Assembly (NCBI GenBank): GCA_973895155.1
Contig: OZ316898.1
Coordinates: 12,799,659-12,863,658, forward strand
Source: Marsupella aquatica
Lineage: Eukaryota; Plantae; Marchantiophyta
DNA length: 64,000 bases
Direction of reading: 5' to 3'
The stretch's first letter is position 1; each line of letters opens with the position of its first letter. This document shows, in pieces, positions 25,343 to 54,494 of this stretch. Under the pieces are notes generated by a model that was not told the DNA's origin, made no database searches, and saw nothing but the letters and a program-made list of their open reading frames with translations. The position numbers were made by a program, and so were the translations under genes.

Positions 25343-25536
25343 ATATAGAGTTAACCAAGAAAATGTCTCTATATGAGTACTCCATCCGATGGCTTATCGG
25401 CTACGGCTTAGTTCTAGTTAACCCTTGCATTAGGGGGAGGGTCTTTTGGCCCTACTGTCTTGAACTTCCCGCGGAGGAACTTGTAAGGAAAAGACAATGT
25501 TATGAATCCTCCCAAGACGTGAGTCAAGGGGGAGTT

Positions 25537-29410: not shown

Positions 29411-29456
29411 GTTTCTACTAGTGATCTGGTGTCACTAGTAGAAACCGGGGTGTTTT

Positions 29457-30328: not shown

Positions 30329-33300
30329 CTACAAACCACACATTTCAGGTGTCCCTATGTAATCTGTTGGCCACAACACCAAAGAGTTCAGAGCATCTGC
30401 AATAATTGTCTGTGGCGGGTCATCATTCAAATTAGGAACTAGTAAAGGGGTCTTTGGCTTCACAAGCTTTGTCAACAACACTACATAATACCCTGTTGGT
30501 ACTTCTTTGCAATGAAATGTAATCTGCTCAGGGCGCAATTTTCCATACCCTACACACAACTCATTTTGCTGTGGTGAGAACAATACATACTCAGGATGTG
30601 CCTGAGTTTTCAATTCTGCATCAGCTTTATGCTTCTTTGTCGCTGCCACTCTACCACTTGCCCTGGCCCGACTCTTCACCTTCCGAATAGGACTCCCAGC
30701 AGCGGAAAGCTCTACTTCTACTCCACCGTCTGTGGTCACACCCTGTATGTCACCTGGCTGTGATGGAATTTGGGTCTCCACCTGGCCCTCCGTTTCGCAT
30801 CCATTCTCACCGGCTTTGGCAACTTCTATGAACTCTTCATATGAATCCAAACTGGGGGTATTCAGTACATTGGTAACCTCTGCAATAACAAAATAGCAAG
30901 TCAACAGCCTATCAGCATTTTTGCCTTATCTCCAATCATGGAAACATATAACAAAACACATTTTTTGCCTCATCTCCAATCATGGAAACATGATGAGAAA
31001 CCTCACCTTCCATTGCTGGGGCCATGGTACCCTCCACATCCCTTTCTATGGGCTCCACCTCCATTTGCTGTTCAATGTTACCCTCTGGATTCATCAAATT
31101 GGAGTAATGTGGCAGGTCTCTAGAACCTCCATTCCATATTGCATTCATTATACATTTGTATTGGTCTTCTTGCACACGAATAAGCTTCTGAACATCTTCC
31201 TTTAAAGCAGTCAACTCACTTGCCATTTCACTCAATTTCACGGTCACATCATTCTCATGAGACTCCATACATTTCACACGATCTGATAAATTGCTAAGAG
31301 AACATGATCCACCTCCCTGCAAACACATATGTCCAACAGAGTCAATCCATTACACCTGGTAAATAATATATGGTCCCATTGTTCATGCAAACTAGGGAAT
31401 GTGGACCTCAAAGAACACTATCTGGTATGAGTACTCACTTGGTTTGAAGGATCACTCTGGCCAGATTTTTGCTTCTGTTTTCTTGCTTCAGCTCTCACCT
31501 CTTCTTTTGTAGGGGACTGTCCATTTTGTGCCTTCTGCATACATCATATTTTCACACATTATTTGCTCGGACACAAAAAAACTCAAATACACTGTAGAAG
31601 CTAGGTCTGCCAATCCAACGATTATTCTTACCAGCTGCTCTACTATCGGAGCATTCCCTTTCCTTCCTGTCAAGTTAAGGTTCTGAACGTTGCCACGTGC
31701 ATATGCCATCTGGGAACTCTTACTTTTGCCGGATTCACTCAAGAAGTGATGGACTAGCTTGCTCCATTGAAGAGGATCTGTCAATGGGGGAGCAGGCATT
31801 CTTTGGTCCTCTCCACCTTCTTGAAACAATACGTGCAATCTCCACCTCTCATTCTTCAGAATTGTCTTCGCATGAGCCTGAAGACACTCCATGGCTACTC
31901 CATCCGGATGGCCCACATATTTCCATTTTGCGGCTACATTGTCAACAACTTGTTGCCAATCCGCTGGATGCTGCTGCACAAAATTCACCACACTCAAATC
32001 CAGCCATCGCAATATTTCACCTTTCAAGTCAACCAACCAACGATTCTTCCCTGCACATGCACTGTTCACCCAACGGTTGCTCCCAATGTCCACTACTCCT
32101 TTCTTGGTTCTGTCAGGTCCTGCATTGCTTTCTGTGGTACTACTTGGTGTGACAGGTTTAGGATTCGCTGGAACTTTTGTACTACCCTTTAGTGGACTTC
32201 TAATGCCCCCTGCATCATCCCACATCCATGTGACATCATACAATAGTAACATCAATACCTTTGTATATGTCAAATAGTGGATACCAATTGCAATCTAACT
32301 TGCAATGTGACCATCTTCACAGAATGCCCATCTCCAAGCCATGTGACCAACTTACCAGATGCTTTGCCGACACTCTGTGGATAAGAGGCAGGCTCAACTA
32401 CCTGTACATCTTCCCCACCAGCCAACCAATCAGGCTCTGGCCATTGCTCAGAACCATAGGCTACAGTTGTCCCTTGTCCTGCCTCTACTTCAGGTTCATA
32501 GTAAACCTCCTTGTCAGTTACTCCCCAATCAGGATGGACAGAATCTGCAGTCACATAATTCAGCACTTTAATTAGGTCTTTAACATCACACTAGCATACC
32601 CTTTATATATTTCCAAAGTAATTTACATAAATGCCAGAATTGAAGGGCAATCTCTACTCACATCTCCAATCGTCTCCTGTTGCTCCATACTGCTCAGTAT
32701 GTTGTGTTGGTCTACCTTGGCCCCGTGTAATGTGTGGTGGTGGTGGACCCGTAACATACACAGCAGTGTGCCCAGCAGGTGGTGGTGGCCCATACCCATC
32801 CACTTGTGGGGCTGCTCTCCCCTGAGAGGGTGCACTGTGTGTTGGTGGTGCGCCATACACCACAGTGTACCCCTCGCTGCGTGGGGTTGCTCTAACCTGA
32901 CCTGCACCTGTGCTGTGGGTATGTGTTGTTGCTCTACTTGCAAAGGAGGGTGGGATGTGCCCACCGTGTGGTGCAGCTCCATACACAATAGTGTGACCAC
33001 CTACACCAACAGTTGTTGTTCCATACCCACTGCTCTGTTGGGTTTTACATGGAGGTGGAGGTGGTATGTGCCCAGCACGCCCCATTGGTCCGGACCCACG
33101 TGCAATGTAATGCACTGTGCTTTGCCCTCCAGATGTTGTTGTACTGTGCCCACGGCCCATACCCCGAGCAGCAAGTCCACCTCTCTTAGCCTGCAAGAAC
33201 ATATGTGCAAGGACAATAAACCTAAAAGAAGTATCTTCCTTTGACTTGCCACACTCACATGAGCCAAACATATCACTACTATGATACACTACTTCAACAC

Positions 33301-33810
33301 TTCATTACCACAATTTTGTTGGGCTCCACAACATTATGCTTGCCCTGCACATATTCTTCATCATCTGCATCGGGCTCCTCCTCTGGATAGTACTCTACAT
33401 CATCAAATTCCTTATGGTTTTCACCGGACCCAACATCTTGCCCATCATCTGCAGAATCTGCCATCGATGGAATGTCCTTCACTGCTAGTCTCTCACTGCG
33501 TCGCCGAGGTCCACTTGCACTGTCACTGATGCTTTGCCTAGCCCTTTTCTGCACTACACTTCTCCTGTCTGGGAGCCTGCATGCCATCCAAAAGCAACAT
33601 CCATTGAACAACTCTAGTAAACATAGCTACATTCATTCCAATTAATGAGCAAAGTCTGGATAGGTTCTGTGGATGATAATTGTTCCCTTACAAAGCGAAA
33701 AATCCCTGTCTGAGCTCAGCTCCCAAAGCTGCCAGCCTCTCATCAACATATGCTGCACGTATCATGGCTTGCTTTTCAGACTCACTCATCTCATCATCAT
33801 CTTCTTCCAT
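30329..33810 (-). CDS. CACTA TnpA-like accessory protein (Ptta/En/Spm and Tnp1-like domains), about 8 exons, apparently intact
   Basis: Phase-consistent GT-AG exons: 33810-33692, 33576-33309, 33190-32662, ~32544-32356, ~32209-31633, ~31534-31439, ~31316-31006, ~30879-30329. QWSKLVHHFLSESGKSKSSQMAYARGNV...TGRKG resembles Transposase_24. C-terminal VGYGKL...FHCKEVPTGYYVV...TPLLVPN...LVLWP resembles the Tnp1/En/Spm-type domain. Confidence 0.75.
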
Positions 33811-33828: not shown

Positions 33829-36800
33829 TTATTGCATACGCATGGTGTCAGGCTCAGCCTCTACAAATGGCTCCTCACCCTCCCAAGCATCCACCCGTGT
33901 TAGAGGAACATACTCTGTGCTTGTCTGAACAGTACCAACGTCTCCAGTACGTGGTTGTTCAAATGCACTATGTCTATCTAAATGGAACTCTAGCTTTGAC
34001 CCTTCTACCCTACGATTTCTGGGCTGCTTATGACACACTACCCTCCAACCTGGGTTCTCTTCCACATCCAAGAAGAAGGCCTGCTCCACCTGACTGGGAT
34101 ACACAAAAGGCTGCTCCCATTCGGGCAACTTGGACTTGAAATTGGCAAGCAGAAAGCCATCCCGGTCTCTTTTCATACTGGCCCTGTTACCACGCCACAC
34201 TTGTCTTACCCATTCACCCTTCATCAAAATTACAGGAGTGGATGTGGCTCCATAGTCAAGAAGCCAGATATCACTTAGTTCTCCTACATACCCCATCTGC
34301 AACACTCCTCTACTTTCATCAGGGCTCTCATGCTGAAATACACAAATGAGCCCGCAATCATATGTTACCCTGGAAGAAGTTGTTTCATCTCTCACTCTAT
34401 AGTGATTGCCATATGCTGCCGTCCGTTTGTAAGACTTTACCAGCAACCGTGGAGGATTGGACAGGAGATAGACATCTGCATCCATATTAGGATGGCTTGC
34501 ATGATGCTCTCGAACTGTGCATCTCAGCCATTCTGACATGCATGGGAATGTGGCAGACGTGCTTGATTGAATAGCCTTTTGTGCCTCGTACTCTCTACAC
34601 ATACAAGTGCATGGATTTAGCAATCAGAGTACACATTTTATACATGTCTGCAATTTAGAAACCAAGGGTAGCAAAGAAAATTGAAAACAAGTTACATACA
34701 GGGAGACCAAAGTAGGTACTCACTCCAGCCAGGGTTGCATTGCATCAGTGTTTTCTAGAACGTACTGATGAGCCAAGTCTCTAATTTCGATGGTCAGCTT
34801 CACTGTGGTTGCAACACCTTGTAGGACTTCCCCAGACACCCCTTCTTCTTCATCAGAATTCCATACTCGCCTTGTCACATGCTCGTAATCTACTAGGTAC
34901 TCTGTGATGTAGCCCAGAGTTTCATCTTTTATATAACCCCGAGCCATACTTGCCTCTGGCCTATAGTAAGATCGCACATGACCCTTCATCAACTTCATGT
35001 ACCGCTCCAGGGGGTACAACCAGCGTGCTGTCACCGGCCCGTACTGGTCTATTTCTTCTACGACATGGATGAGCAGATGAGTCATTACATCAAAGAATGC
35101 AGGCGGGAAATATATTTCAAGATCACACAACAATAGTGCCACATATTTCTTCAATTGGGGAAACTGTGCAGCATCCCACACCTTCACACAAACTCTGCGG
35201 AACACATCACTCAGACGCAGTATAACTTTACGCACAGGCTCTTGCATGAGGCCCCTCAGGCACAATGGCAGGACTTGTTGCATCATGACATGGTAGTCAT
35301 GGGTTTTCATTCTACCAAATTGGAATTTGTTATCCTTCACATGCCTCTTGAATGCACTAGCATAATCTGTAGGAGCTCGGAGTGAACTCAGCCTTGATAA
35401 GAAGGTCTGCCACTCTGTGTCTGTGCAACAATATGGTGCTTGGTACTTCAAAAACACATTTGCCCTGCTCTGGTGTGTTGTAAGCCAAAGGTGGGGTTGA
35501 ATTCCCCTGTCCTATAGATCCATACGTACAGAGCCCGTGTCCTTTTCTCCACTCAAAAATCGGAGTAGACTCTCGCATATGTTCTTCTCTATGTGCATAA
35601 CATCAATATTATGTTTGTTTGGATCAAACTCCTGCAACTCCAAAACATCAAGCAGTGAGCAAATCCCAATCTTCATAATACATACATACTACTTCATACA
35701 ATCTAACAACTAAATTGACTGAATCACATATATGGGTTGTTGGGGAGAGGAGATTACTCGCCAATACTCCAGCTGCAAGTCCAAAATGGACTGTCGTTTC
35801 ACACCATACAACCTTGCAGGATCTCGTACTCCATCCTCTTCTCCTCCATCTGCATCATACTGTGCCTTGGCAGCCCCCCAAGAACTTATTTTCTCCTTCT
35901 TCACTCGAGGTGGGGGACTGCGGAGCTCCGTGCGCTTGTTAAAATGTGCTATAAGATTGGGTCTACGTCTGTAGGGGTGATCAGAGGGCAGAAATCGACG
36001 GTGATCAAGGTATTTGATACACTTCAAGGACTTTGAATAGTCACTTGTCACATGGGGGCCACATCTTGTGCAAGCTAAATATCCTTTCCCAACCTGGCCT
36101 GCAATCATGCTATGGGCAGGGTAATCTGCAATAGTCAACATTACAATAGCTCTAAGCAAGAATGGATTGGCTTCACCAATCCTCTGCAGCATATCATATG
36201 TGAGCACTCCAGTGTACCATAGCTTTCTCAGTTCCCCTACTAGAGGAGCAAGATAGACATCTATATTGGCTGCAACAGCACTGTCTGGCCCTGGAATCAA
36301 CAATGCCAACATTACAAAGAACCGCTTTGTAGTCAACCATGGGGGAAGGTTGTAATTCAAAAGGGTTACAGGCCAACAAGAGTACGCATTGTTCTTCTCA
36401 CCAAATGGGTTCACCCCATCCAATGATAACCCAAGCCTAACATTCCTTGTCTCCCTAGCAAACTCAGGATACACATCATCAATCAACTTCCATTGCTTTG
36501 AATCTCCAGCATGGCGTTGTAGCCCATCTCGACTTTTGTTTTTAGCTGTCCATGTCATCAACTCTGATATGGCACGGCTCCTGAACATTCGCTGCAGTCT
36601 GGGAATTATAGGAAAGTGACGGAGTACTTTTGCAGGTTGCTTGGACTTCCCATTGTTCCGGTACCGTCCTGTGCTTCCCACATGTAGGGCATGTCAACTT
36701 CTTCTGATGTTCGTTTCTGAAAAGAACATGCCCATCAGGACAGACATGTATTGACTCATAGTTCAGCCCAAGTTTTGATATCAGTCTCTTTGCCTCGTAC

Positions 36801-37579
36801 ATGTTTTTTGGCACTAGATTACCTCCTGGTAGCACTGTTTTTTGCAAGAAGGCCAGAACCTCGGACACAAAGATGTTTGGCACATTGTGGTTCCCACAAA
36901 TATTCAGAAACATTAGCACAAATGCTAATTTGGAACACTTGCTTCCTGGGAACAGCGGATTGAAGGCCTCCTGAACTTCGGTTGGGGAGCCAAACATGGT
37001 GTCCTCTCCAGCTGTAGCCTGTTGCCCAATCTCAAACTCATCTGAAGACTCGTGGTCATCACCCGGTGCGGTCTCAAACTCTTCTGCATCTTCCATGTCC
37101 TCCCGCATTGCATCCATATCCTGGAAAATATCCTGCACCATTTGCTGAACATTGATCCCTTCGTCTGCAGGCTGCTGAAGGACTTCAGACCCACCCAGTT
37201 GAGTCATCACATCTGCCAACCCACCAGTGAAGAACTGGTCTCGCCTTGCACTATTTGCATTCTCAAAGTCAGCCCTCCATTCCTCATCTGAAGAATCAGC
37301 CTCATTCGGATCGTTTGTAACACGCCAACGAGGGTGTCTCCCATGAATTGCCAAGTGCCCATGAATCTGCCTCAAGACTCTGGTGTGGGAGCCATTGCAT
37401 TGAGTGCAAGGACATCTCATTCGTGAACTTGGACCTGACCGTGCCACTTTGGCCTGTTCCCGATTCCAGAGCTTCTGGTCGTGTTGGGAAACCCTCATTG
37501 GATGATGTAGAGGCAACCTGGCAGATGTTGGATGGGTCCAAGGGGGAGGGTGACCTACGGACACTCTTCTAGACTCCAT
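33829..37579 (-). pseudogene. CACTA TnpD transposase (transposase-associated, Transposase_21, DUF4218 and DUF4216 domains); exons 37579-35758, 35631-34724, 34594-33829
   Basis: Motifs MRCPCTQC..HL..HG; IHVCPDGHVLF..CPTCG; LRHFPIIPRLQRMF; NVRLGLSLDGVNPF; YNLPPWL; DYPA; DVMHIEKN; HDYHV; FPPAFFDVMTHL; WLYPLERYM; EQPFVYPSQVEQ. Lesions: frameshift near 36665 and in-frame TAG at 35514-35512. Confidence 0.92.
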
Positions 37580-37966: not shown

Positions 37967-38569
37967 TTACCAGAGTTCATCTGGATACCCACCCTGTTCT
38001 CGATGGTAGTCACACCTGAGGTACACTGGCATGTACATCAGGTCATCAAGGAGTATGCCCTGGGCATACCAGGGTGGGGTTCGATCTGTGCCTACAAGAA
38101 GTGGTTCTAATGCCCTCCACTGGGGGGAGCTAGCTACCAAGTCCCTCCATTGTGTGCTAATTAGTCTATATTTGCAAATGTCTTGTGCGGTTGACCACTG
38201 AAGAATTCTGGGCCACACATCCGACAACATTATATCATCTGGCAAACCAGGCAACAAGGAAGTCCCCACAACATTCTGCTCTTCAATTTCATCTGCTGAA
38301 AAATAAGATTCATCGTCTCTTGCATCCTCAAGCGGTGTTGAAATATGTTTCAACACCAACCCATGCAGGAGAGTCCAAACAGTGGCCAGCCATGTGGCAA
38401 CCCGGAGGAGGAGCCTACATAGCGCCTGTTGATGTAGGAAAGGCAACATACCCACCAAAGTCTGCCGCCAAGATTTGAGCCCACCCAGTAAGTTTACAGT
38501 GACACCCCCAGGCCCAGCAAGTAACCACAATCTGCCAATAGTAAAATAAGTCCAACTGCGACCAACCAT
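37967..38569 (-). CDS. CACTA cargo: F-box-domain protein with no recognisable substrate-binding domain
   Basis: LLPGLPDDIMLSDVWPRI...ICKYRLISTQWRDLV (about 38257-38114) fits the plant F-box pattern L.PGLPDD...R....W..L. True start uncertain. Confidence 0.7.
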   Translation of the reverse strand: MVGRSWTYFTIGRLWLLAGPGGVTVNLLGGLKSWRQTLVGMLPFLHQQALCRLLLRVATWLATVWTLLHGLVLKHISTPLEDARDDESYFSADEIEEQNVVGTSLLPGLPDDIMLSDVWPRILQWSTAQDICKYRLISTQWRDLVASSPQWRALEPLLVGTDRTPPWYAQGILLDDLMYMPVYLRCDYHREQGGYPDELW

Positions 38570-38660
38570 AACAAGCTATGTTAGTTCAAATATCACATTT
38601 ATTTCAAAGATGTGATTTGTACACAAAGCTTGTCTCAAAACTGATGCTACTACGTACTCC

Positions 38661-39533
38661 TCACTCTGATTCAGAATCGCTAATAACCTCTTCCTCACTT
38701 GTTGTCACATAGTTTTCACTGTGAGGATCCTGACCCTTCCGTGGCCAGGCCTCAAAAAGATCATAGTCCATTGGGTTTTGACGCTTCCCAGCTGCTACTG
38801 ATTCCACAAGCCAAGCATATGAAACCACAAACACATTATGGGACATGACATAAAAGCGAATGTCACCCTTCCCAAACTTGCGGCAGGCTTTGGGATATGA
38901 CTTAGTAATGACATGAGTGGTGTCCTCTGTTATATTCTCCTCCACTGTCCCACCTAGGTCAAGCACTATGGACTTGTACACTTTGCACTTAACCTCTCCA
39001 ATTCCCGCCTCCACAAAAACCATGCTCAGCCCTTTCAGAATGGGGGTTGGTTGCTTCATCTCCTCAGCCAACATACTCTTCAGCCTTCTTGAGATTTGTC
39101 CTTTGTTGAGTACAGGTCCATATTGGACATCAGCAAGCCGTGCCTTTGCTTCCCAGACTTCTTGTTCAGCCCAAGCTGATGCAGTAGCTTCTTCATCCTC
39201 CCACAGTTCATATTGCTCAGTATCCTGTACAATCTGATGTGCTATGGAATCTGTGATCCAAGAGGCCTCAACTACTTTTAGGCCTCGCTCAGTAATTGCA
39301 GAATTCATGTAGGACCATGACCATTTCTTTATCACTGATAGCCATGTCCCTGCAACAACATGTGTAGTCTCTGGAGTGATGTCCTGCACTACAGTGCCAT
39401 GGAGCTCAGAGAATTGTTTCTGTACAGTTGGCCAATGCACTTTGGTCAACCCATGCTGGCCATGGACCAAAATGGCTCTGACCCCTGTAAACACTGCTGG
39501 GTGGTCACACTTTCTACGTTTCCCAGGCTCCAT
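38661..39533 (-). CDS. CACTA cargo: tandem BRCT-domain protein, about 290 aa
   Basis: Two repeats: VFTGV...HGTV...TTHVV...VVEASWITDSI...YEL and ILKGL...LGGTV...TTHVI...VVSYAWLVESVAAGK...YDL. Both carry the BRCT GG, THV and WxxxS motifs. First ATG at 39533; basic N-terminal KRRK. Confidence 0.85.
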   Translation of the reverse strand: MEPGKRRKCDHPAVFTGVRAILVHGQHGLTKVHWPTVQKQFSELHGTVVQDITPETTHVVAGTWLSVIKKWSWSYMNSAITERGLKVVEASWITDSIAHQIVQDTEQYELWEDEEATASAWAEQEVWEAKARLADVQYGPVLNKGQISRRLKSMLAEEMKQPTPILKGLSMVFVEAGIGEVKCKVYKSIVLDLGGTVEENITEDTTHVITKSYPKACRKFGKGDIRFYVMSHNVFVVSYAWLVESVAAGKRQNPMDYDLFEAWPRKGQDPHSENYVTTSEEEVISDSESE

Positions 39534-40129
39534 GTACACACACCCTACGTGATCAGAGTGAATATTGGAAGAGTGGGTTCACCTGCCAATAGAAGGACAC
39601 CAAAATTCCTGCTTTTTAAGTTGATCCGGTCCACTGTTGCCCAAGTCCAATTTTGATAGGTACAGGGGATATGTGAACAATAAGTACTAGGCACCTGCAC
39701 CGATGCAGGACATTGTTTGAGTATATACCAGGAAATCCATATCAAAGGTGAAATGAAGTGCAACCAACTTGTCATGGCCGCACATACATATTTTGTTGTA
39801 AAGGAGGATACATTCAATGACAAACTTATAGGGCAATTTGATTAATTGCATGTCTGATAATTTATATGCTTACAACTTTGAAGTCCTGTTTTAATTTAGC
39901 ACTCTGATGAGAGTGTTTGTGAAAATGACCACTCAGCCTAAATACTTCCAAGAAGGCTTGTTAGGATAAGTTTTTATAGGCATGTACCCAACCACTGACG
40001 CTATAGCATAGGATAAGTGCTGCCTATACAAACTTGCCTACCCAACTCCTTTTCAAAATTGGAATCTCTGCAATCCCCCAAAAATAGTACACCCACATCA
40101 GGTGCCCTGTGCATGTACAATGTTTAGCT

Positions 40130-40810
40130 TCATAGCCAAGATATGTGATCTCTCACAGGAGTGCGCGAGGTAGGATCAATGGCATGGCGATGACAATAAA
40201 ATATCCATCGATCAACACCATGTGCAGAGTGATCATAGATTTCTCTGTCACAAGCATAACCCTCTGCTTGACGATCTTTCAAGCAATGATAGTGCCACAT
40301 AGTGGGACACCTAGCACAGTGGACTATGTCAGCCCAGTACTCATCATCATGCTCACCACATGCCTTGCACCTATGAAGTGGGCAAGCTGTGGCATGAGCA
40401 GGCAAACACTCAAAACAGAAAAACCTCACACAAAAACGGTCTGGACATTTCCTAACATCCGGTGCAGCATCAACAGAGCCCTCATAGGACCCCAACTTCC
40501 CACACTGTGCACACTTAGCTTGCTTCTCCAAACAATCAGTGCACATCCAGTCTCCCTGGTGTGTTGACGGGAGGCCCACCCCTGGACAATTGTTTTCTGC
40601 AGCAAGGTGAGACTCCGGGTTGAGGTGGAAATGCCTCATGCAAGGGCCCTCACAGATGACCAAGCTCCCACCATCGTCACAAATGGCACAACAATGAGCT
40701 GCCTTCTGGAAAATCTGACTTGCAGAGAAGTTAGTAACGTGTGGCCCAGGTACACCTGTGTTGCTCACCTCTATCACACGCTTTTTCGCTGGAATTTTGG
40801 GGCGTGCCAT
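40130..40810 (-). CDS. CACTA cargo: EDM2-like composite (triple) PHD-finger protein, 226 aa
   Basis: CAICDDGGSLVICEGPCMRHFH...C...WMCTDC; CAQCGKLGS...CPDRFC..FCFEC...CPLHRCKAC...CARCPTMWHYHCL...IFYCHRHAIDPTSRTPVRDHI. This matches the EDM2 PHD region as recalled (CAICDNGG..CEG.C.RSFH; CPLHKC; CRRCPKSYH; IYC..H.ID....TPVRDH). Confidence 0.88.
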   Translation of the reverse strand: MARPKIPAKKRVIEVSNTGVPGPHVTNFSASQIFQKAAHCCAICDDGGSLVICEGPCMRHFHLNPESHLAAENNCPGVGLPSTHQGDWMCTDCLEKQAKCAQCGKLGSYEGSVDAAPDVRKCPDRFCVRFFCFECLPAHATACPLHRCKACGEHDDEYWADIVHCARCPTMWHYHCLKDRQAEGYACDREIYDHSAHGVDRWIFYCHRHAIDPTSRTPVRDHISWL

Positions 40811-41560
40811 GCCTACGCATGAGACAGACAGTACAATTAAGTAGACAATACAGGCAATACATTTTGGCAGACTTTACAGACAATATATTCTAGCCGACTT
40901 CACAGAAAGTAAAATTTAGCATTTAAGGTACAACGGCAACTTATACTGCAATGAATTGCAATGGCCACACAAGGATGCAGGGCAGACATACTTTTGGTAT
41001 GTTGAGCCCACACACAAAACTGATCTCCTAGTACAATTGCTCCACCAGCACCTCAATTTCGTGGCTATGATTCACCAAAAAAGATCTGCAACAACATTTC
41101 ATGCATTTGAATCACATACAATAGTCATCACATGAAAAACAGGCGTTTTTCCAACAAGATTGGGATCAAGTAGTGTGACGAGGGTTGTACTTTATACATC
41201 CTATATAGGCTATGATAGTGAGACAAATAAGTTTGAATACGTGACTGTATGGGATGTTTGCAGGTTATGACATGGCCCATTAATTTTGTCATATAATGTT
41301 ACAATGTTGGCCAAGTTAAAGCAGTCATTCAAGCAGTCTTTCATTGGAGAATTTAAAGAGAGCTTGCTTAATTCTTACATTAGGATATTCCACTTAGTGC
41401 AGCCAAATTAGGATAAGTTATATACTATGGATCCTAAACCCTGCACCCAAAATTGCTCAAACTTCAAAATTTTAAATAATTATCTGCGGTGCTTAAGTCA
41501 GAGCATTAAGTTATAGGTCATTGCACTCTGGTCTGTGCATACGGTGTGACAAGTGCTCCT

Positions 41561-42010
41561 CTACAGCGTGTGATCCAAACATGTGTAGACACCAAACGCA
41601 CCGGTGGTGGGGTCTGGGAGGCCAGGACAAGTGACATCGCCAGGCACACTGCAGGATGGCGAGTGGTTCCAGATGATACATTGTGCTCTATGCAAAAATC
41701 GACACCCAAGAGAACGGTCATCCAACTTTGGGCCAGAAGCCCGACAGGCAGGACAGTCATATTGGCAGTTGTGTACACACCCTTGGGCCCTAATTTGTGG
41801 CGGGTCATGTACAAGAGACAGAAATACCAAGGATCTTGGGAAGGGTAGAGAAGCAGGTACAGGCCAACTGTAGTTATTCCTGGCAACAATAGGGTACTCA
41901 AAGTACCATGCAGACTGGGCAGGAAGGATCCCAAGTCTCACATACTCAAGGCGCAACCTCTCTGCCTTGCGTGCAAGCCGCACATGTTCAGCATTGCGGG
42001 TGCTCACCAT
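41561..42010 (-). CDS. CACTA cargo: small Cys/His-rich, divergent PHD-like protein, 149 aa
   Basis: CPAC-x13-C-x7-C-x4-H-x3-C...YTCLDH approximates PHD spacing. ATG start; co-oriented with its neighbours. Confidence 0.5.
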   Translation of the reverse strand: MVSTRNAEHVRLARKAERLRLEYVRLGILPAQSAWYFEYPIVARNNYSWPVPASLPFPRSLVFLSLVHDPPQIRAQGCVHNCQYDCPACRASGPKLDDRSLGCRFLHRAQCIIWNHSPSCSVPGDVTCPGLPDPTTGAFGVYTCLDHTL

Positions 42011-45000
42011 AACTGTTGCTTTTGTTCAGATGTCTTGTGTTCACGTCCTCTGACGTCCTTTGATCAGCAAGGTGAGCAGGAGCTGTACTTGCCTCACCAA
42101 CAACAACCAACCTCAACTTATCAGTTCCCACTCACTGTGTCATTCCCTTGATTCCAACTAGAGGTCATAGTATAAACTTAGCATGAAACACTCCTAATCA
42201 ACAATGTTGCAAACTACAATATCCAGAAACACTGAAAGTCTCTGCCTGCAGTGAGCAACAGAGAGGTAGTTCACTGCTTGCAAGAGTGACTGAGCAGGAG
42301 TGTAGGCAGACTGGCATTCAGTTGGCACAACTATATTGTGCATCAGCACAAAAGCTCTTATAAACATGATATGCATGAAACTCATCGATAAAATAGAAGG
42401 AAACTAAACAGTGGATGCAAAACAAAGCAAATTACAGCACAGGTCGGCACAGGGCAAAACAGAGCAAAACAGAGCATGGATCGAGAAAATGAACAACATG
42501 TAGTTCTTACGCAAGAAACTCAGTGACAGCAAACAAATTCACTAGCCCCAGGGAGTGAAGCAAATGAGTACCAAGCCAACCAACTAAGATTGACTATGAA
42601 ATGCAAGTGACATCATTTCAACCAAAAAAACAATAAAGCACTTAGGCAACATTAATATAGAAGTGTAGTGGAATTATATCATGCGACAGATCATACTTGG
42701 TTCTACCTGAGGTGTACAGGCATACTGCCCTCAGGTAGAATGTGTATGCCCGCACATACACAAGAGGATCCCCAACAAAGCATATAACAATATGATCTGA
42801 ATTCCCAATTACTCTGTTTTGTCTATACCTATGTTCATCAAAAAATGTTATGAGCAGACATTGAGAAGCTAGCAAAATAGAGGAGCCAATCGAAGCCAAA
42901 ATATTACATTGCAGGTTGAATACATCAGTCACTGCCAAGAATCTATGCATGAAACAAACATGAAGGTATCGAATATGTATATGCATTACAAACTTTCATG
43001 CTAGACAGTGGCCAAAGTTAAAATGAACTAGTTTTGACTTTATGACTCTCTGAATGAAAATATTTTATTTCAGAATTATATTCTATTTCAGAATGGGTTC
43101 AACTCTGTGGATTGTGAACTGTCCCACTTGGAATTCCACTATTTGGGCTATCTAAGAATGCAGTTCAAAGGACATACAGTGCAAGACAGTTAGAGATCAT
43201 GTCTTCATTCCGACGTCCAATTGGACATTTTATGTCACAAACTGCGCAAGCAATGAAGTCCATGGAATTTTCTCAAAAATGCAGCTTCTGTTGTTGGTAA
43301 AAGCAACTATGAGTTTCCTATTGAGTGCCCCCAATGCACAATACTACCAGAGGCCCACTTTAGACAACGATGGCTGTCATTACTTATTGGGAACTCGGAT
43401 GCATATGTATTGAAATGCTTCGTAGAGTGTTCCGACCACAGGCAAACCTAACATCAATCTCAACATTCAGTCCCGTCTCAGAATTGATTTAGAGGAGGCT
43501 TAGCATTCAGTACAGTGTCAACAATCAGACTTGTCTTCACATTCAACATCCAATTGCAAGGGGCTTCGATGAAAGCACAAGACAGAGCTATAGAAGAAGA
43601 GACAGAGGAAGGCACCTGTGTGTTTGGGGAAAATGTGAAGCTCCAAAGACCACCCTAAACTGAAATCGCAGCGCACAGTTGGCCGGTCGTAGGTTGATAA
43701 AAGCAAAGCATAGAGCCACTTGGACGTCTGCAATGTTGTGAACTTGCTCCTTTCCTCACACTGTGACCGATGTCGCAAGGCATCTTTCCGTCGCAGTTGA
43801 GGTCCTATGCCTGATGACATGATCAAGAATGAGTAGCTACAATGTCCAGTCTCTCTTGACAGGGTGACATAGCAGCAATACACACATTGGATCAAAGCAC
43901 GAGTCGGAGAAAAACAATGAGAGATAAAAATGGACTTTCGCTCACCCATGTGTTGGATGGAAGAATGCAGCTACGAGGGCCGGTCTCCAGCTACAGCTCC
44001 TTGATGGCAAACCACAGGCTCTTCCCGGTTCTTCAACCAAAAACTGACCCGAAACACACTCTTGCAATGTCCTGAGTTAGTCGCAACAACTCCAATGTAG
44101 GTTGCAGCTGCCAATCCGTTCCCTCCGCCCTCCTTGCCAATGCCAACTCCCGATAGCAATGAGGCTTGTTCAGCTGACCTCCTTTGTAGGAGCTCCCAAC
44201 TCCCAAAGGAAAACTGTCACTACTCAGCTAAAAAACGGCCCCTGGACCTTGTCGCTGCCAATGTGCGTCGTGCGCTCAGTTCTCCTGCCCACCAAGAACT
44301 TCAACTATAACTTCAACTCCAATGCCCAAGAAGATTGATGAGCTCCTTAGTCAGAGACGCAGCTGGAAGGGTATGCACGCACTTACAGTTCACTAAGCTC
44401 CAATGCCCGAGACGATTGAGGAGCTGGTCCTGAGACTGGTCGCAGCTTGCACTCTTCACCTCAGGAATCCCGCGACGTTGTTTGAGCTCACAATACGCTT
44501 GGAAGAGAAGGATAGCTGCAGTAGACTTCACCCTAAGTCTTTACGCCTCCCACACAGGTCCCGCATTAGTAAAGCTTGTGCAGTGCTGTGGTGCGTCCCA
44601 TGGCTCCCTAAACCCAAGAAACCCCCCAGCTCAAGCCGATTCCCGCAGGTTTCGTGCTTGGCGAGGCCGTTTCCGCGGCTTAGCGGCATGGGACGCTGCT
44701 AACCTTCTACTACTACTATTAACATTTTACACACATATACTGGACAGATCCTTCATCGGGTCATGAGATACGTAGCCGGCCTAATATAGGCCTTCCCCTG
44801 TCTTCCCCTGTCTTCTTGTTAGGTATGTTTGGATTCCGCCGCCGGAATGATCCCCAATAGGCTTGGTTAAGCCGCTAAGACCTCTCTCAGCTCGACACAT
44901 CCAACTCTCACTCCCCTGCTTACTTTCCTTCCTTCTGTTGATGTGGGCACTCTTCACACAAGTTAATGCGACACACAAATAGCAAAATGACTCATTCTGA

Positions 45001-45498
45001 CTGAGTCATACCATGCACTTGCCATACAAACAGTACATCTCATACACAAGTTCTGCGAACTAAGTCGTGAGGCCAACTCTATTCAGCTCTTAGGCATGAG
45101 GAAACATGAATATACACAAGGGTCACTGTATGACTAACCGAGAGCTTCTCGTACTACTTGATCCCAGCCCGGCTGGTGCAAACTAAAAACTTGCTAAAGA
45201 AGAGGCCCTGAGCTCCCCGCTGCCCAGGTACTTATCCTGGTAGTGGATCCGCCATTCTTTGCATCGTAAGCCTAATCTACTTAACAGTAATCTACTTGCC
45301 CGAATCTACCTATGTACAGCAAGGCAGGAGCACAAGTGTTGCTCCTACCAGTGGGACCGCAATCCCACTAAGCTAAGTGTCAGGGCCGCTCCTGGTTCTG
45401 ATCCTAATCCTAAACGTGGAGATCCGCGCCCGCCCTGCCCACTCACGCCTCCTCCCTCCACGTCCGCCCTCCCTAAAAGGAACGGCGCCCTTGCACCG

Positions 45499-48400
45499 TC
45501 ACGACACCGGTGGTGGATCCTTAATGGACGCCCCCAACGCTTCCTCCTCAGCCACTGCCGTAGGTTCATTCTCTGACAGATTACCTGCCCTTGACTGAGT
45601 CAACTCTCCATCGGCCTGACTGGGTCCACCTTCGGCTTCAGCCTCGACACCGGCCTCGGCAATACCCACGGCTTCGGCCTCAGCCACTCCCACGGCTTCG
45701 GCCTCCCCTTCCCCTAGGGTAGTTGGATCCTTAGCCGTGACCCTGTCTGGGGTCGGTGCTGGGTCTACCTCCTTGATCACCACGGCCTGTGAAGTCGTAT
45801 TACTCCTTGACCCTGAAGGTTTCCGCTTCTTCTTCGTTGGTGGCTCGGCAGCTGGTCCCTTCCCCTTCCCACTTACTTCCAGCACTGGTGCAGTTGGCGC
45901 GGCTTGTCCTTCGGCAATTACCACCCCTGGTAACTGGTTTGTCCCAACGGGAGATGGACCTGCTGCAGCTAAGCATTTAAATACTGCGGCTTGTTTCTTC
46001 AGCCGCTCTGTTTGGTTGTCGGCCCGCCGCTGTAGGTTCTCCATCTTCCTCGTGATTTCCTCCAACTCCTCTTGGGTTTCATCCAGGTCCTTACGTGCCC
46101 CCTCCAGCTCATTTTTGGCCTCCTCCTGCTCCCTGTGGGCTTCCTCCAATTCCTTCTTCAAGGTAGCCCTCTCCTCCTGGGTTGCTCTTAGCTCCTTGTC
46201 GAGCTCTGCAATGATGACAGACTCCATCTGGTTCATCTTGGCGTAAGTTTGTTCGAGCATCTCGTCCTTCTCCCTTAGGTCGGCCTTGAAGCTGGCCGTC
46301 AGGGACGCAAGCTCCTGCTGCAGCGCCATAATCCCTTGATAGGATTTCCCTAACTCGACCTCCTTCTGCTCAAGGGCTCCGCGGATTTTCTCGAGCTCCC
46401 CTTTCAACGCCCATTCCTTTCTTTGGGTCTCCGCCATGGCCCGGCTGTTGGCTGTTATGTGGGCCTCCTCTGTATTCTTCAGCTCTTGCTTCCACTTCTC
46501 CCTCTCTTTGATCGTGTCGGCCAACTCTTCCTGCGTCTGAGTCAGTTTATCCTTGATATTCTGATTATCAGCCTGCGCGGTGTCCAACTGCCCCTGCATG
46601 ATGTTCAGCTCATGTCGTTTAATCCGCAGTTCATCTTGGGCTTTCTTGGCCGCCCTTAGATCTTCAATCTCGGCTTCCATCCTCCTAAGCCGCCGAATGA
46701 CCTCGTCCTTCTTGCTTCTCTCTAAAGCCACCGCTTCTTCTAATTGGTGCTTCTCCAACTGCTCCCTATGGAAAAAGGGTCCTACCTCCAACTCCTCTCC
46801 AAAGATGCCGAGCGCAAGTTCCCCACACATCTCACCATACTCCATGGCTCTATTCTTAGCGTAGGTGGAGTAAGTAGAAGTGATCGGCATCGCCCATCGT
46901 GGCCTCTGCTCCCAAGCCGTCCTGCGGATCTCTTCAATCGTGGCTAGAGGTTTGCTTCCTTTTTCGGCTAGCCGCCTGATGTCCTCCGGCCAATCTCCTC
47001 CTGGTAAATCCTTTTCCTTAGCCAGGGCGGCCTCCTCCTCCTGCTTGATTCGCTCCTGAAATTCCTGCACCGTCTGTTTTATGCCGTCGAAGCTCGGGGG
47101 AGCAACATCTGGTGGGGGAGACTCAGGGCTACTCTGCTGGTTGGGGTCCCCTCGCACTACCCTTGGAAGTGTGGGGACAAACCGGCCACAGGTCCTTACT
47201 CCTGGAACGTGATGGTCCGACCCATAGCCGGAATTATCATGGCTGCAGTCCTCCACTGCCTCCTCTACCTCTTGGACGTCCGGCTTCTCCCTCTCCTCTT
47301 CGTCGGTAGGAGCTTCAGGCAATTCTGCCTCAGATTCGGAGCTTGAGGTTCCCACGTACATTCGAACACCTGGCTTGGATTCCGGCCTGATTCTCTCCTT
47401 GTCTCCAGCAAAGGGGTTTTCTCTTGTGAGCCGGTGTAGGCCTACCTCTGTAGTAGTGTCCTGCATTGTTGCCGTTGCCGTTGTTGTTGCCGATGCCGAT
47501 TTCTTTTCTTTCTCCAGTAGTTTCAGCAGACTCTGCATGCCTGGTTGCTGCATCGGCAAGTCTTCCTTCCTGGGCCTAAACACCTGCTCGATCGTAGGAC
47601 TAACAGGTGGTTGAGGCTTCTCAGCCAACGGCCTCGGCGTTGGAGCTTCCTCGGGTGCCCTTACCTGTAGGGGAAGTACCGGGGCAAAAGTCTGACCTCT
47701 GGCATACCGGCACAACAGCGGCATGTGATAGCCAAGCCGCGACACGCCCCCCATGCCGATTACCTGCTGCTCCTCCTTTAAGATCTTCTTCAATTGGTTG
47801 AGGAGGTACCCGTTGTAGTCCCGGCTTGGGTCTGGCCTTTCTGCCAGATAGACCTGTGCCTTGCCGATCTCTGCCCTCGGCAAGTTACAATGCATGGTCA
47901 CCCGCAAGAAGTCGATCATCTCTCCTATGTGCGGGTTGGTGCAGGTGTTCCGGAAGAAGCCATTCTTCGTTGATGGCCCGGGGAACGACCGGAACTCCTT
48001 GTCAGGCAGGGTCTTCCTGGTATCAACTTTGGTCTTATTGCCTATCGGCAAGCCAAACACTTCGGCAATTACCTTGGGAGTAAGATAGAAATCCTTCCCA
48101 TATATCCTCGTGCAATTGGTCTCGGGTTCCCATGACCCCACGAATTCTAATAGGTCTGACTCCGGTACCTCCGGCTTCAGCCATGGTAATCTTACAAAGG
48201 CCTCCAAGCCGGATCCGGCCATGAAGCCTTGGTACTTCTTGGTCTGCATGGCCGTAAAGCATGCATCCTCCTCCCGTGCAAAATGTAGTTGCACCTCCAC
48301 CGGTAGGGTTGCCGCCCAGCCCTTCCAGGTGTCATCCCTGGTTGGAATGGCCTTGATGGGATCGACCTCCTCCTCTTCGGCTTCTCCCTGCCTCCTACTC

Positions 48401-48840
48401 TGCTGCTCGGCTGGCCTCTTTGGTGCCGCCGACCTCGTTCTTTTTGCCGGGGTGGCTTCATCGTTGACGGCCCCCTTCCTCTTCATCTCTGCTGCCGTGG
48501 AGGTTTCTCCTAGCACCGTTGCCTGGGTCCACCTTTCCGTGCTACCCTTTAATTCCCAGTGTATGTCGTTGCAGTTCTTGATGGCCTCTCGGATGCCGAC
48601 GACGCTGTCTTTGCAAAACAGAAGATCGTCGAGTTGATTGGAAGTAGGCGTCCACAGGAACTCGTCCTTGATGAGTTCGCCTCCTAAGAAAGCCGTCTTC
48701 TGCAGCTCCCACAATCGAGCGAGCTCCTGCCGTTCTCGAGCTGCCCTTTCTGACTCCTCGTCCTCGTAAGTCTTGATGTACTCAGTTGCCCGTTCGAACA
48801 GGCATCCCCAGAAATGTGCCGCTTGATTGACGTTGCTCAT
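45499..48840 (-). CDS. CACTA cargo: 1113-aa PMD-like/plant-transposon-domain protein with long coiled coil; frame extends upstream to 49098 across one TGA
   Basis: GLEAFV...LLEFVGSWEPETN...IYGKDFYLTPKVIAEVFGLP resembles the Plant Mobile Domain / Athila-ORF-like motif (W.PET...IT..DV..ILGLP). Heptad-rich E/K/Q/L region at about aa 690-960. PPTKKKRK NLS-like motif. Confidence 0.7.
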   Translation of the reverse strand: MSNVNQAAHFWGCLFERATEYIKTYEDEESERAARERQELARLWELQKTAFLGGELIKDEFLWTPTSNQLDDLLFCKDSVVGIREAIKNCNDIHWELKGSTERWTQATVLGETSTAAEMKRKGAVNDEATPAKRTRSAAPKRPAEQQSRRQGEAEEEEVDPIKAIPTRDDTWKGWAATLPVEVQLHFAREEDACFTAMQTKKYQGFMAGSGLEAFVRLPWLKPEVPESDLLEFVGSWEPETNCTRIYGKDFYLTPKVIAEVFGLPIGNKTKVDTRKTLPDKEFRSFPGPSTKNGFFRNTCTNPHIGEMIDFLRVTMHCNLPRAEIGKAQVYLAERPDPSRDYNGYLLNQLKKILKEEQQVIGMGGVSRLGYHMPLLCRYARGQTFAPVLPLQVRAPEEAPTPRPLAEKPQPPVSPTIEQVFRPRKEDLPMQQPGMQSLLKLLEKEKKSASATTTATATMQDTTTEVGLHRLTRENPFAGDKERIRPESKPGVRMYVGTSSSESEAELPEAPTDEEEREKPDVQEVEEAVEDCSHDNSGYGSDHHVPGVRTCGRFVPTLPRVVRGDPNQQSSPESPPPDVAPPSFDGIKQTVQEFQERIKQEEEAALAKEKDLPGGDWPEDIRRLAEKGSKPLATIEEIRRTAWEQRPRWAMPITSTYSTYAKNRAMEYGEMCGELALGIFGEELEVGPFFHREQLEKHQLEEAVALERSKKDEVIRRLRRMEAEIEDLRAAKKAQDELRIKRHELNIMQGQLDTAQADNQNIKDKLTQTQEELADTIKEREKWKQELKNTEEAHITANSRAMAETQRKEWALKGELEKIRGALEQKEVELGKSYQGIMALQQELASLTASFKADLREKDEMLEQTYAKMNQMESVIIAELDKELRATQEERATLKKELEEAHREQEEAKNELEGARKDLDETQEELEEITRKMENLQRRADNQTERLKKQAAVFKCLAAAGPSPVGTNQLPGVVIAEGQAAPTAPVLEVSGKGKGPAAEPPTKKKRKPSGSRSNTTSQAVVIKEVDPAPTPDRVTAKDPTTLGEGEAEAVGVAEAEAVGIAEAGVEAEAEGGPSQADGELTQSRAGNLSENEPTAVAEEEALGASIKDPPPVS

Positions 48841-49989
48841 ACCCTCCTTAGGTCAATCGTCGGTATCTACTCTCTCCCCGAGTGCTTGCCTAAGCAGCTG
48901 ACAATAGTTGGCCTCCCGTAGTCGTCTGCCTAGTTCGTGCTCGCAAATGAGCCACCATCTCCTGCAAGCGCTCCTTACCCCTCTCCTCTGCCGGTCCTTC
49001 TTCCCGTTGATCCTTCCTAGCCGCCGACGCTTAACGCGCCCTAACCCTAATCGGGTTTTCACCCTCAGCCTTACCTCCGGCCTCTGCCCGGGTTCCATGG
49101 TTGCCCCTAATTGTTTATATTTTCCTTGTTTTGTCCCTATACTAAGGTGTTCCTAGGGTGCCTTCCTGCTTTACCCACTTAACCGGCCGAGTGATTCCTG
49201 TCTAGGCATCACAAGTGCCTTCCGCAGCAGTAGCAAAACTCCCGAGTGACTCCCTCCTTCCGCAGCAGTAGTGATCACCTCCCTTGGTGCAACTGCGAAT
49301 GCGCTCTACTTGCAGCCCAAGGACTAAAATGTCCTCAGCACGCAGAGATGGAAGGTTGGCAATGGGAGAAGTTACATACGGGACCCACACCACCACAATG
49401 AGCTCGTAGTTTTACGAGGGAAAGTGAAGGAAATGCGCACCCTAGCCAGCCGCAAGGATGCACTTCCGCCTTGGTGTCTGCACCTTCTCCCGTCTCTCGA
49501 TCAAACGAAGCTCAGACATGTGTGACTAAATGGGACGTGCGACTAAACGGGACGCGGGAACGGAAAAGTTTCACCTGATGGTGGCGATCAACTCCATCCA
49601 ATGGTGCGTGTCCCCCGATTAACCCCCTCCCCCTTGAGATCGATATAACCCCCACGCCCATGTCATATAACCCCCCTAAACCCCCTTTAGGTGTCTTGAT
49701 AAAACCCCCCTAAAACCCCCTTTAGGTGTCTTGCTACAACCCCCCCTAAACTCTGGCAGGATCGGTTACATGCATGTGGATGAGTTAGCTAGGCCTAAAC
49801 TGCACTTCATGTAACACAAAACCCAAAAAAAGCCTCCCTAGCAAACCCTTATGCCCCTTGCATATAGTTCAGTCAATGGCTATGTAAAGCGTAATCCCAT
49901 GGCTCAGAATGTGTATGGGATCGGGTAAATATCCTTTAACCAAGCATATGGCACTACATTATTTTAAAAAGTGTTCAATGGCCACAATG

Positions 49990-50250: not shown

Positions 50251-50274
50251 GAAATGCCCCGGTTTCTACTAGTG

Positions 50275-51508
50275 TTTTCTCTATGGCACCTTGGAAGAAA
50301 AAAATTTCATGAGGCAACCACTGGGCTTTGTGAAGAAGGGCCAAGAGAGTTTAGTTTGTAGGTTGCTTAAGTCCTTGTATGGATTGAAGCAAGCTCCTCG
50401 ACAGTGGAACAAGCGGTTTGATGATTTCATGCTTGCACAAGGATTCACTAGGATGGTGTATGACCCTTGTGTGTATACAAAATCAGTCAAGAATGGTGTG
50501 TTTGGTTTGCTCATTCTGGTGCTCTATGTGGATGACATGTTGATTGCGGCTAAGGATCAAATTGAGGTTGACAAACTCAAAGCAAAATTGAGTTCTGAAT
50601 TCCGAATGAAGGATCTTGGGAAAGCCAAGAGGATCTTAGGTATGGAGATTACGAGGAACTTTGAAACTGGACAATTATGGCTGAATCAAGGCAAGTATGT
50701 TGAAAAGGTACTTGCAAGATTCAACATGGAAAATTGTAAGCCAGTAAGTATTCATTTGGCTCCACATTTCAAGTTATCATCGGCTTTCTGCCCCACGGAT
50801 CAAGTGGAGAGAGGCTTGATGACTAAGGTTCCTTATGAGAAGGCAGTGGGCAGTCTAATGTATTTGATGACATGTACCAGGCCTGATCTAGCCCTAACAA
50901 TGGGCAAAGTGAGTAGATTCATGTCAAATCCAGGGAAGGTACATTGGAAGGCTGTGAAATGGATTCTCAGGTATCTTAAGGGCACAATAGACTATGGTCT
51001 GTTGTTTGATAGTAGATCAAACAAAACCAAATCTTTGGTTGGCTATGTAGATTCTGACTACGGAGGCTGTCTGGAAACAAGGAGGTCAACGACTGGGTAT
51101 GTGTTTACTCTTGGAAGAGGATGCATAAGTTGGAGATCTATCTTGCAGAAGTGTGTATCTCAGTCTACTACAGAAGCAGAATATGTTGCAGCAGCAGAAG
51201 CAGCAAAGGAAGCAATTTGGTTGGATAAGCTGGTCACTGAGATGGGATTGGAGCATGGAAAAATGACTCTTCATTGTGACAGCCAAAGTGCGCTTCACCT
51301 AGCTATTAACCAGGTTATGGATAGCAGGGTGAAACACATTGACATCAGGTACCATTTTATTAGGCAAGCAGTGTCTGATAAAATGTTTGAGCTAGTCAAG
51401 ATTGATGGAAAGCTCAACCCGGCTGATGCTTTTACCAAAGTGATTCCTTTGGAGAGTTACTCAAGACACTGTGCTACTTTGCAAGTTTTGCATTTGCAGC
51501 ACAAGTAG
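50275..51508 (+). pseudogene. Outer copia RT-RNase H (3' part)
   Basis: FLYGTLEE...LLKSLYGLKQAPRQW...LYVDDML...GYVDSDYGG...KHIDIRYHFIR, continuing the RT interrupted at 29410. Confidence 0.93.
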
Positions 51509-51712
51509 AGTAACTTAATAATATATAATTTCTGTATATGGGTTACTCAATCCTGTTATGGCTACGGCTTAATTCTAGTTAACCCTTAGTTAACCTTAAA
51601 TGGTTTTTAGGGGGACACCTATGGTTTTAGGTGATTGTCTAGAATTTCCCGCTGAGTATCTCATATGGATAGCAGAAATTGCAGTCCCCAAGACTAGAGT
51701 CAAGGGGGAGTT

Positions 51713-52045
51713 TGTTAAGGATTGCTCTTAGTCTTGTGACTCATAGGTTACGGCACTTAGGCTAACCACAGTTAGGATCTTAGCTGAGGTTAGGTTAGTC
51801 GTGTGTGACCTTGTATATACCAGGGCTAGTGTAAGCCGCTGGTGGGTTGTGCTTACTGATTGTAACGGAGTAACTTGAGGAAGAGGGAGAGCATGTGTGT
51901 TCGTTTACTCTTGAAATAAAAGCTTGAGTGTTCGTGTGGACGTAGCCTTGGAGAAAAGGTGAACCACGTAGAGATTGTGTCGACTACGTGTGTATGGAAT
52001 GAATCATAGTTGTATGGTCGTTGCGAATGACGTCTTAGTTCAACA
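51713..52045 (+). repeat. 3' LTR of outer copia
   Basis: Direct repeat of 18368-18700, followed by GAGTC. Confidence 0.97.
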
Positions 52046-53720: not shown

Positions 53721-54494
53721 TTCCCTCATGTCATGCATTTCGAGTCTATGCATGAAGGTTTTTGTCACCCATGGTCAAGGTCATTTGTTGTGAGCTCGTC
53801 TTTGTACAAATGCACACCAATAGTCATGGTTGTTTGTGCCTGGCTATGGTGATTACTGAGGAGTGGCCAATGCACACTTGACATGAAGAAGTCGGTGACG
53901 GAGCTAGAAGAGTCTACGATGAATGTACATATTGAAGCTCAGGAATTTTTTCATATGCAGTACAGGTGCTCCTGCTGGACAAACTGCAACAGACTTCGAA
54001 GTGAGCTAGAAGACGCTCACGGCATGCACGAGGACGTTGCTCACAAGCATGAGGAGCTTTCAGACGGAATTGATGCGAACTACTACTCGAGAACACCGAC
54101 CTCGTGGCGAATTTGCTAGCTCGCGTGTGTGCTTCGGTACGGGACTTGGCAGTGCAGAATACCTCTGGACGATAGCAGGCCAAAAAGAGTTCGCTAGCAA
54201 ACAGACAAAGCAATAAACTTGGACTATTTACAGTGTAGGAGAAAGTCCTATCGATCACAACAATAATTACTCCTGCATTAGTAGTTTTGCCATAATTATC
54301 GACCACGTGTTTTCGGGAGGGCACTTGCTTCTCAGAGGATCCGCCACTTCCTCCCACAGTTTCGCCTAGATCGGTGCCTCGTCTTTAGCATCGGTCATAA
54401 GCTCACTGTCTCACTCCCCTTATCGGTATGTTGTACTTTGCCAATGGACCAATTTCCGATCGATTAATTCCATCATCTGAATCTCAACAGGAGA

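Follow-up and report, generated by a model that had tools for sequence, protein, structure and literature searches.

A conserved H3-patterned tail on an EDM2-type PHD protein carried by a CACTA transposon of Marsupella aquatica

Proteins that mimic histones are known from viruses and from humans. Whether a plant transposon encodes a mimic of the H3 tail is the question raised by a 64,000-nucleotide stretch of the Marsupella aquatica genome (contig OZ316898.1), called the window below. A PHD protein of 226 aa encoded there begins with MARPKIPAKKR (minus strand, 40810-40778: ATG GCA CGC CCC AAA ATT CCA GCG AAA AAG CGT). The original prediction had noticed that A1, R2, K4, A7 and K9 fall in register with H3 after removal of Met, and this register was reproduced, with five of the ten residues of the quoted H3 10-mer matching. 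At least five H3 matches arose in 0.3% of 500,000 shuffles of the ten tail residues and in 1.3% when A1 was fixed. For a single sequence picked post hoc the match is modest and only suggestive, and family conservation is therefore the stronger evidence. Papers cited by PMC number are drawn on through excerpts.

The PHD protein and the element that carries it

The PHD gene sits inside a 20.8-kb CACTA transposon (Table 1), a context established for the window copy alone, its homologues having no usable context. The element ends carry subterminal TGACTA/TAGTCA repeats, and the element was inserted in, and splits, one copia RT frame (flanks 29396-29432 and 50275-50300). The 3 bp at its two ends, where a CACTA target duplication would lie, read TGT and TTT. 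The Cys-rich, PHD, BRCT, F-box-like and TNP2 frames all lie on one strand. Summed contig depth over 39500-42400 was about ten to more than a hundred times that of 42400-44200 (four runs, type unrecorded), which points to many copies. The nested insertion carries a 1117-aa frame (45499-48852, minus strand) with only a weak, sub-cut-off ATG16 Pfam match, and self-BLAST detected no LTR pair within ~44587-49327.

Several further observations were made in the window. At the left end of the element, a 13-nt inverted copy of the terminal inverted repeat (29411-29423) stands together with 9 nt repeating nearby flank; this remnant and the repeated flank look like the footprint of an abortive local hop. 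The Cys-rich ORF, for which no Pfam match and no Atlas match was found, opens with ATG followed by the strong donor-like GTGAGC; splicing from there to the acceptor at 37580 would join it in frame to the TNP2 ATG. Near-identical copia repeats (19813-20135/25537-25859, 99%; 18363-18700/51708-52045, 97%) are consistent with nested, recent insertions of the copia elements at 18363-25859 and 51708-52045. A 396-aa frame at 54468-55658 (plus strand) with an R13L1/DRL21-type LRR match (PF25019) may belong to an NLR gene next to the element.

Table 1 Features of the CACTA element and its PHD gene in the window
Feature	Position	Strand	Basis
CACTA terminal inverted repeat, 18 nt, end beyond transposase	29433..29450	+	perfect match to 50257-50274
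Further open frames at usual TnpA place	30329..33626	-	position only; no Pfam match in 6 frames scanned
CACTA TNP2/TnpD transposase, several frames	33829..37579	-	PF13963, PF02992 (E 3e-66), PF13960, PF13952
Frame with F-box-like stretch	37967..38575	-	PF00646, E 1e-4, above cut-off
Tandem BRCT ORF	38661..39533	-	PF00533, E 2e-14, two stretches
Stand-alone EDM2/NSD-type triple PHD ORF, 226 aa	40130..40810	-	Pfam, PDB, AlphaFold, tree
N-terminal basic motif MARPKIPAKKR	40778..40810	-	sequence, family conservation, mostly silent sister-copy variation
Candidate 3' splice acceptor 2 nt upstream of ATG; TAG here, CAG in other copies	40813..40815	-	sequence
Cys-rich 149-aa cargo ORF	41561..42010	-	high summed depth
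Nested very high-copy insertion	44587..49327 (approximate)	.	depth steps, joints at ~44586
CACTA terminal inverted repeat, upstream end of element's genes	50257..50274	-	18-nt perfect match

The 226-aa product contains PHD1 (approximately aa 39-93), PHD2 (96-140) and a variant PHD3 (148-180). It matched Pfam PF23011, PF22908 and PF23004, each just under the curated cut-off, and among PDB sequences it matched NSD2/NSD3 over about 150 positions (E 2e-12 to 3e-9). Pfam detected no domain beyond the PHD module in this frame, the RFD and the methyltransferase-like ELP domain being absent. The nearest long relatives share the same PHD families, and DNMT1-RFD was present in 4 of the 12 matches scanned; a triple PHD with DNMT1-RFD is what we take to be the EDM2 architecture (compare PMC7529245, excerpt). 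The strongest close relatives at any length were proteins of 130-245 aa, and the long matches scanned were mostly EDM2-like. A quick tree, the only one built, was made from 21 cores of the family and 45 host-like ones (the first of 88), and in it a branch with a support of 100 separated the family from the EDM2-like cores.

Conservation and position of the tail

To define the family, the window protein was combined with 28 short relatives possessing an N-terminus from four protein searches (n=29). Excluded were P0020, P0032 and P0124, which are without the N-terminus, P0163, a near-copy of P0011, and P0016 together with every other EDM2-like match. The start Met was hand-chosen for 10 of the 29 members, including P0007, P0010, P0013, P0018, P0023 and P0092, where the automatic pick was an internal Met; so was the anchor in P0164. 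Conservation of the tail motif, on which the original prediction depended, was borne out in the R2, K4, A/S7 and K/R9 columns: 24 of the 29 members carry [AST]-R-x-K in their first 14 residues, a count that is circular because [AST]-R-x-K was the anchor, which positions 7 and 9 were not. With this anchor kept constant, A or S occupies position 7 in 23 of the 24 carriers (20,000 shuffles gave a mean of 4.3 and a maximum of 13), and K or R occupies position 9 in 19 (shuffle mean 8.0, none as high), giving the family pattern [AST]-R-x-K-x-x-[AS]-[KR]-[KR]. Pairwise identity among carriers has a median of 42% and exceeds 70% in 3 of 276 pairs. H3's T3, Q5, T6 and S10 are not kept in these 24 proteins, position 3 being P in 12. 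The motif is missing in five members, the close relatives P0002, P0003 and P0166 among them, and it was found within 50 aa before Cys1 in none of the 88 host-like EDM2 proteins, suggesting that it was gained with the stand-alone form.

Sister copies were compared through contigs aligned on 40690-40890, which gave 37 listed variants, 30 of them in the coding part. Codons 2-10 held 7 silent and 3 replacement variants, all three of the latter in codon 7, the position of H3's T6, as compared with 4 silent and 16 replacement variants in codons 11-30 (Fisher p=0.015; four DNA-type runs from two studies only, each variant scored as a single change). The conserved columns and the mostly silent variation in codons 2-10 show that the tail motif is under constraint. 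In the sequences compared, its most constrained columns coincide with H3 R2, K4, A7 and K9.

Similar N-termini were also found in viral contigs, where a scan for the tail pattern yielded 58 matches, 51 of them translating as MARPKxxAxK. Twenty-three matches supply the first Met to frames that stay open over at least 60 codons, with about 14 distinct N-termini by eye, a count that has no denominator and hence gives no rate. Judged by translation these frames look like phage proteins, indicating that the pattern can arise in phage-like proteins. Related loci themselves made up 1 of 63 candidates in metagenomes (L001), none of 27 in viral contigs and 1 of 21 in prokaryote genomes, the last a weak match (L098, E 2e-4). 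As a separate observation, two viral-contig frames (L076:601, plus strand; L089, minus strand) open with the exact H3 N-terminus for about 23 and 11 residues, respectively, and run on as non-histone sequence, with repeated KKRGRPK units in L089.

The motif directly follows Met in 11 of the 24 carriers, begins 3 residues in for 6 and lies 7-8 residues in for 7. These offset classes are interleaved on the quick tree, where P0005 and P0006 are sisters, indicating that the motif shifted relative to the N-terminus on more than one occasion without being lost. In the window, the frame between stops spans 40130-40873, and the tail Met at 40810 (minus strand) is the first Met in it. Summed contig depth drops upstream of ~40845, about 35 nt before the ATG, and an out-of-frame ATG lies upstream at 40820 (minus strand). 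The TAG/CAG variant at 40815, seen in four of four runs, is no proof of a splice acceptor, since it is also silent in the out-of-frame frame opening at 40820. An upstream coding exon spliced in phase 1 to 40813-40815 would place the motif inside the protein; that this ATG is not the start for this reason, or that the copy is unexpressed, strikes us as highly improbable. Such an exon would be compatible with the YAG 2 nt before the ATG, kept among copies, with the same V-G-M context in the homologue P0014 and with the 12 phase-1 GT dinucleotides of the Cys-rich ORF. On the other hand, a Met, partly hand-chosen, stands 1-8 residues before the motif in all 24 carriers, the strongest close relatives are short, and splicing from the only strong donor in the vicinity (42008) would yield an out-of-frame stretch of 13 codons. 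Moreover, L001, the one homologue with DNA, has an in-frame TGA 48 nt before the ATG of its MARPKIKAK, on the 3' side of the most likely acceptor. The Cys-rich, PHD, BRCT and TNP2 ORFs (42010, 40810, 39533 and 37579, minus strand) all begin with ATGG 0-11 nt after a YAG, which would suit alternative splicing from a shared non-coding leader. We infer that the ATG at 40810 is the translation start.

Docking in cis and its alternatives

Canonical PHD binding requires the free Ala1 amine, and PHD readers of unmodified H3K4 carry an acidic cluster N-terminal to Cys1 (PMC3241642, excerpt). No such cluster was found in the window protein. None of 21 family members has an acid in the 4 aa preceding Cys1, as against 85 of 88 host-like proteins; only position 32 retains E, in 16 of the 21, and the window protein has Q there. 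PHD1 of these 21 members also contains no K4me3-cage Trp, an invariant residue two before the His ligand, which is replaced by H in 12 and Q in 9. Judged from these residues, the family has lost the canonical K4 site, and with both the pre-Cys1 acid and the cage Trp gone the H3 groove may be dead. D or E is found at positions 45 and 54 in all 21 members and at 49 in 15, and by analogy with AIRE acids at 45, 49 and 54 could hold an R2. Across the family the tail lies 28-48 aa before Cys1, a span that would be enough to fold back, and the net charge in the window protein is -7 for the core and +5 for the tail.

In an AlphaFold model of the window protein (46 rows, Ala as first residue; mean pLDDT 89.3, pTM 0.84), residues 1-10 had a pLDDT of ~70, residues 5-6 forming a strand and 7-9 a helix, and the linker 11-16 fell below 50. 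The model of P0164, whose motif lies 8 residues in, had 86.3 overall and ~60 over residues 1-20, with one bridge at 16 in a different register and a dip at 19-23 after the motif. These models give a weak hint of the tail packing against its own PHD module; such packing may also reflect H3-like peptides on PHD folds that AlphaFold met in training. Foldseek/VIA-align retrieved PHD-family structures, the best being NSD PHD5-C5HCH (Z 5.8, rmsd 3.1-3.3, 85-90 aligned residues), and in all chains listed, including the H3-fused AF10 chain 5dah, the alignments stopped short of model residues 1-18. Complex prediction of residues 20-225 with a 30-aa natural H3 tail (L066) scored 0.01, a value that speaks neither for nor against binding. 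The intramolecular complex envisaged in the original prediction was thus matched by the modelling as far as the tail appears ordered on the module, but no docking site was seen.

Our best reading, held tentatively and short of probable, is that the conserved H3-patterned tail of this transposon-borne EDM2-type protein docks on its own PHD module. A non-coding leader would be spliced to the acceptor 2 nt upstream, making the ATG the start. The tail would fold back into the acidic groove of the module, its R2 using the retained acids D45, position 49 and E54 in a manner that would not need a free N-terminal amine, and, once docked, it would control whether histone tails or partners can reach the module. 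Competition, or modification of K4/K9, would then free the tail and switch the reader on. EDM2 binds H3K9me2 chromatin (PMC7529245) and promotes full-length transcripts across intronic transposons (PMC7529245, PMC9910501). By extension from EDM2's role, the benefit to the element would probably be continued expression within H3K9me2 chromatin, of the kind that EDM2 makes possible for host genes, and the PHD protein would plausibly help the element's own multi-exon transcript.

Several findings disfavour docking in cis. The P0164 tail reaches only ~60 pLDDT with its bridge in another register, the T3, Q5, T6 and S10 positions are not H3-like, the motif is absent from part of the family, phage-like proteins share the pattern, and start Mets, as well as the P0164 anchor, were partly chosen by hand. 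The auto-inhibition first proposed finds support in the ordered tail, but its canonical form is weakened because 13 of the 24 motifs are not N-terminal and PHD1 lacks the acidic cluster and the cage Trp. A wider version, in which transposons captured the EDM2 PHD module, stripped its H3K4 site and added an H3(1-9) mimic as a modification-controlled switch or bait, seems to us rather unlikely; the marks on such a built-in mimic could come from enzymes of the host or from SET proteins that transposons encode.

Chief among the rivals, and in our view doubtful, is a basic targeting arm, either a non-classical nuclear import signal or an anchor to DNA or the nucleosome acidic patch, the H3 register being coincidental. 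It would explain why K/R make up 34% of residues 2-12 compared with 13% further on (automatic Met choice), why position 6 is K in 13 of the 24 carriers, unlike H3, and why the motif floats 1-8 residues from Met; several of the 23 viral-contig frames starting with MARPKxxAxK are DNA-binding-like by eye, and the protein's own PHD1 is without the canonical K4 site. A mere charge patch, however, would not be expected to keep a small residue at position 7 in 23 of 24 carriers, and a protein of about 25 kDa, such as this one, can enter nuclei without a signal. A classical monopartite NLS (consensus K[KR]x[KR]) is present in 4 of the 29 members and missing from the window tail, so that of the ordinary basic NLS offered initially as an equal alternative the classical form falls away and a broader targeting role remains. 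Position 1 is never G, and the AT-hook core GRP is absent, for which reason an AT-hook identity was rejected. The SUVH6 peptide bound by ASI1-BAH, considered as an analogue in the published excerpt, shares only basic residues with the tail and was likewise rejected.

Instead of docking in cis, the tail could act outward as a bait that recruits or titrates host H3-tail readers (H3K4 PHD, MSI1/RBBP4-type WD40) at the element, a reading we judge unlikely. Its closest precedent is the group of H3 N-terminal mimicry proteins (H3TMs: VRK1, BCL11B, PCLAF and others), which carry iM-Z-R-x-K, a pattern present in 48 of 20,996 human proteins, and which are proposed to recruit or titrate H3-tail readers (Chen et al. 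2021, PMC8166343, excerpt). By sequence, iM-Z-R-x-K is found in the window protein (M-A-R-P-K) and in 11 of the 29 members, spread over several sub-branches of the tree; P0014 opens with ARTK and P0023 with TRTKQ, and the lost K4 site would leave the tail free for other readers. For the 13 carriers with an internal motif, by contrast, canonical PHD readers are excluded, and the tail is partly ordered in the AlphaFold monomer. Separately, two short EDM2-like proteins that the tree places with the host, P0046 and P0056, start with M-A-R-K-K and match iM-Z-R-x-K, apparently independently of the transposon-protein family. Taking docking in cis and the outward bait together, a functional H3 likeness of the tail is in our estimate fairly probable.

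The tail had also been suggested to act as a decoy, either as a substrate of H3K9 methyltransferases (SUVH/KYP) or as a target of K9me readers, and this suggestion retains hardly any likelihood. A7 and K9 are in register, position 9 is K in 12 of the 24 carriers, and EDM2 itself binds H3K9me2 chromatin, as cited above. The residue before K9 is the obstacle: SUV39H1/2 and G9a need Arg at -1 of the target Lys, and replacing R8 abolishes SUV39H1 activity (PMC8303541, excerpt; animal enzymes), whereas the window tail reads A-K-K-R with K at position 8, R8 occurs in 5 of the 24, the R8-K9 pair in 1, and position 9 is R in 7. Because R8-K9 is so rare, a K9-methyltransferase decoy is unlikely, as far as this requirement of animal enzymes applies.

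Relation to known systems

The tail motif is real and conserved in the sequences compared, and it is apparently undescribed. A literature search at the level of titles and abstracts, covering few subscription papers, found no transposon-encoded H3 mimic and no transposon-borne EDM2-type reader, and neither "PHD" nor "histone" occurs in the main text of a 2026 review of plant-transposon gene capture (PMC13317346); PMC11738798 and PMC4980392 contributed nothing more. Should the tail bind its own module or readers of the host, a plant transposon family of high copy number would be interfering with the histone code itself, and capture of the module with a built-in H3(1-9) mimic would, if true, constitute a transposon-encoded histone-mimicry system. 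A motif of 10 residues makes such manipulation cheap to test, and the small, confidently modelled 226-aa protein is a handy model for peptide binding by EDM2/NSD triple PHD modules. If the tail is only a targeting arm, interest shifts to the cargo gene and away from the motif.

Compared with the H3TMs, with which it shares iM-Z-R-x-K, the window protein is of plant origin, transposon-borne and fused to its own PHD module, and its family also keeps A/S7 and K/R9 and carries the motif internally in more than half of the carriers. Regulation of a chromatin protein in cis by a built-in lysine-bearing segment is known from the Clr4 autoregulatory loop, and the ARKT automethylation site of G9a mimics H3K9 and keeps A-R-K (PMC8303541, PMC8166343, excerpts). 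Both of these are enzymes, whereas the window protein is a reader in which R8 is mostly K; its tail lacks the R8-K9 of ARK[ST]-type H3K9 mimics. As judged from its sequence, the window protein is not a mimic of the ARK[ST] type, does not qualify as a canonical reader of K4me0 or K4me3, and falls short of a full EDM2.

EDM2 and EDM2-like proteins (Arabidopsis; PMC7529245, PMC9910501, PMC4980392, excerpts) are nevertheless the nearest cellular relatives of the 226-aa protein, with up to ~45% identity, and share with it the triple atypical PHD module and the C-terminal TP-x-R-[DN]-H end. The transposon protein differs in having no DNMT1-RFD domain or methyltransferase-like domain, and its family lost the acidic cluster before Cys1, gained the basic motif and forms a separate long branch. 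The PHD1-PHD2-PHDvar array of NSD1/2/3 resembles it in the match over ~150 positions (E 2e-12) and, with a middling Z of 5.8, in fold, but the 226-aa protein stands alone, without SET or PWWP. VANC recognises DNA motifs and causes hypomethylation (PMC13317346, excerpt); the protein described here differs in having a histone-reader-type fold in a CACTA element, known so far from sequence and model. Like VANC/KIU of Vandal (PMC13317346), it is the product of an accessory gene on a plant DNA transposon and plausibly acts on the chromatin of its own element.
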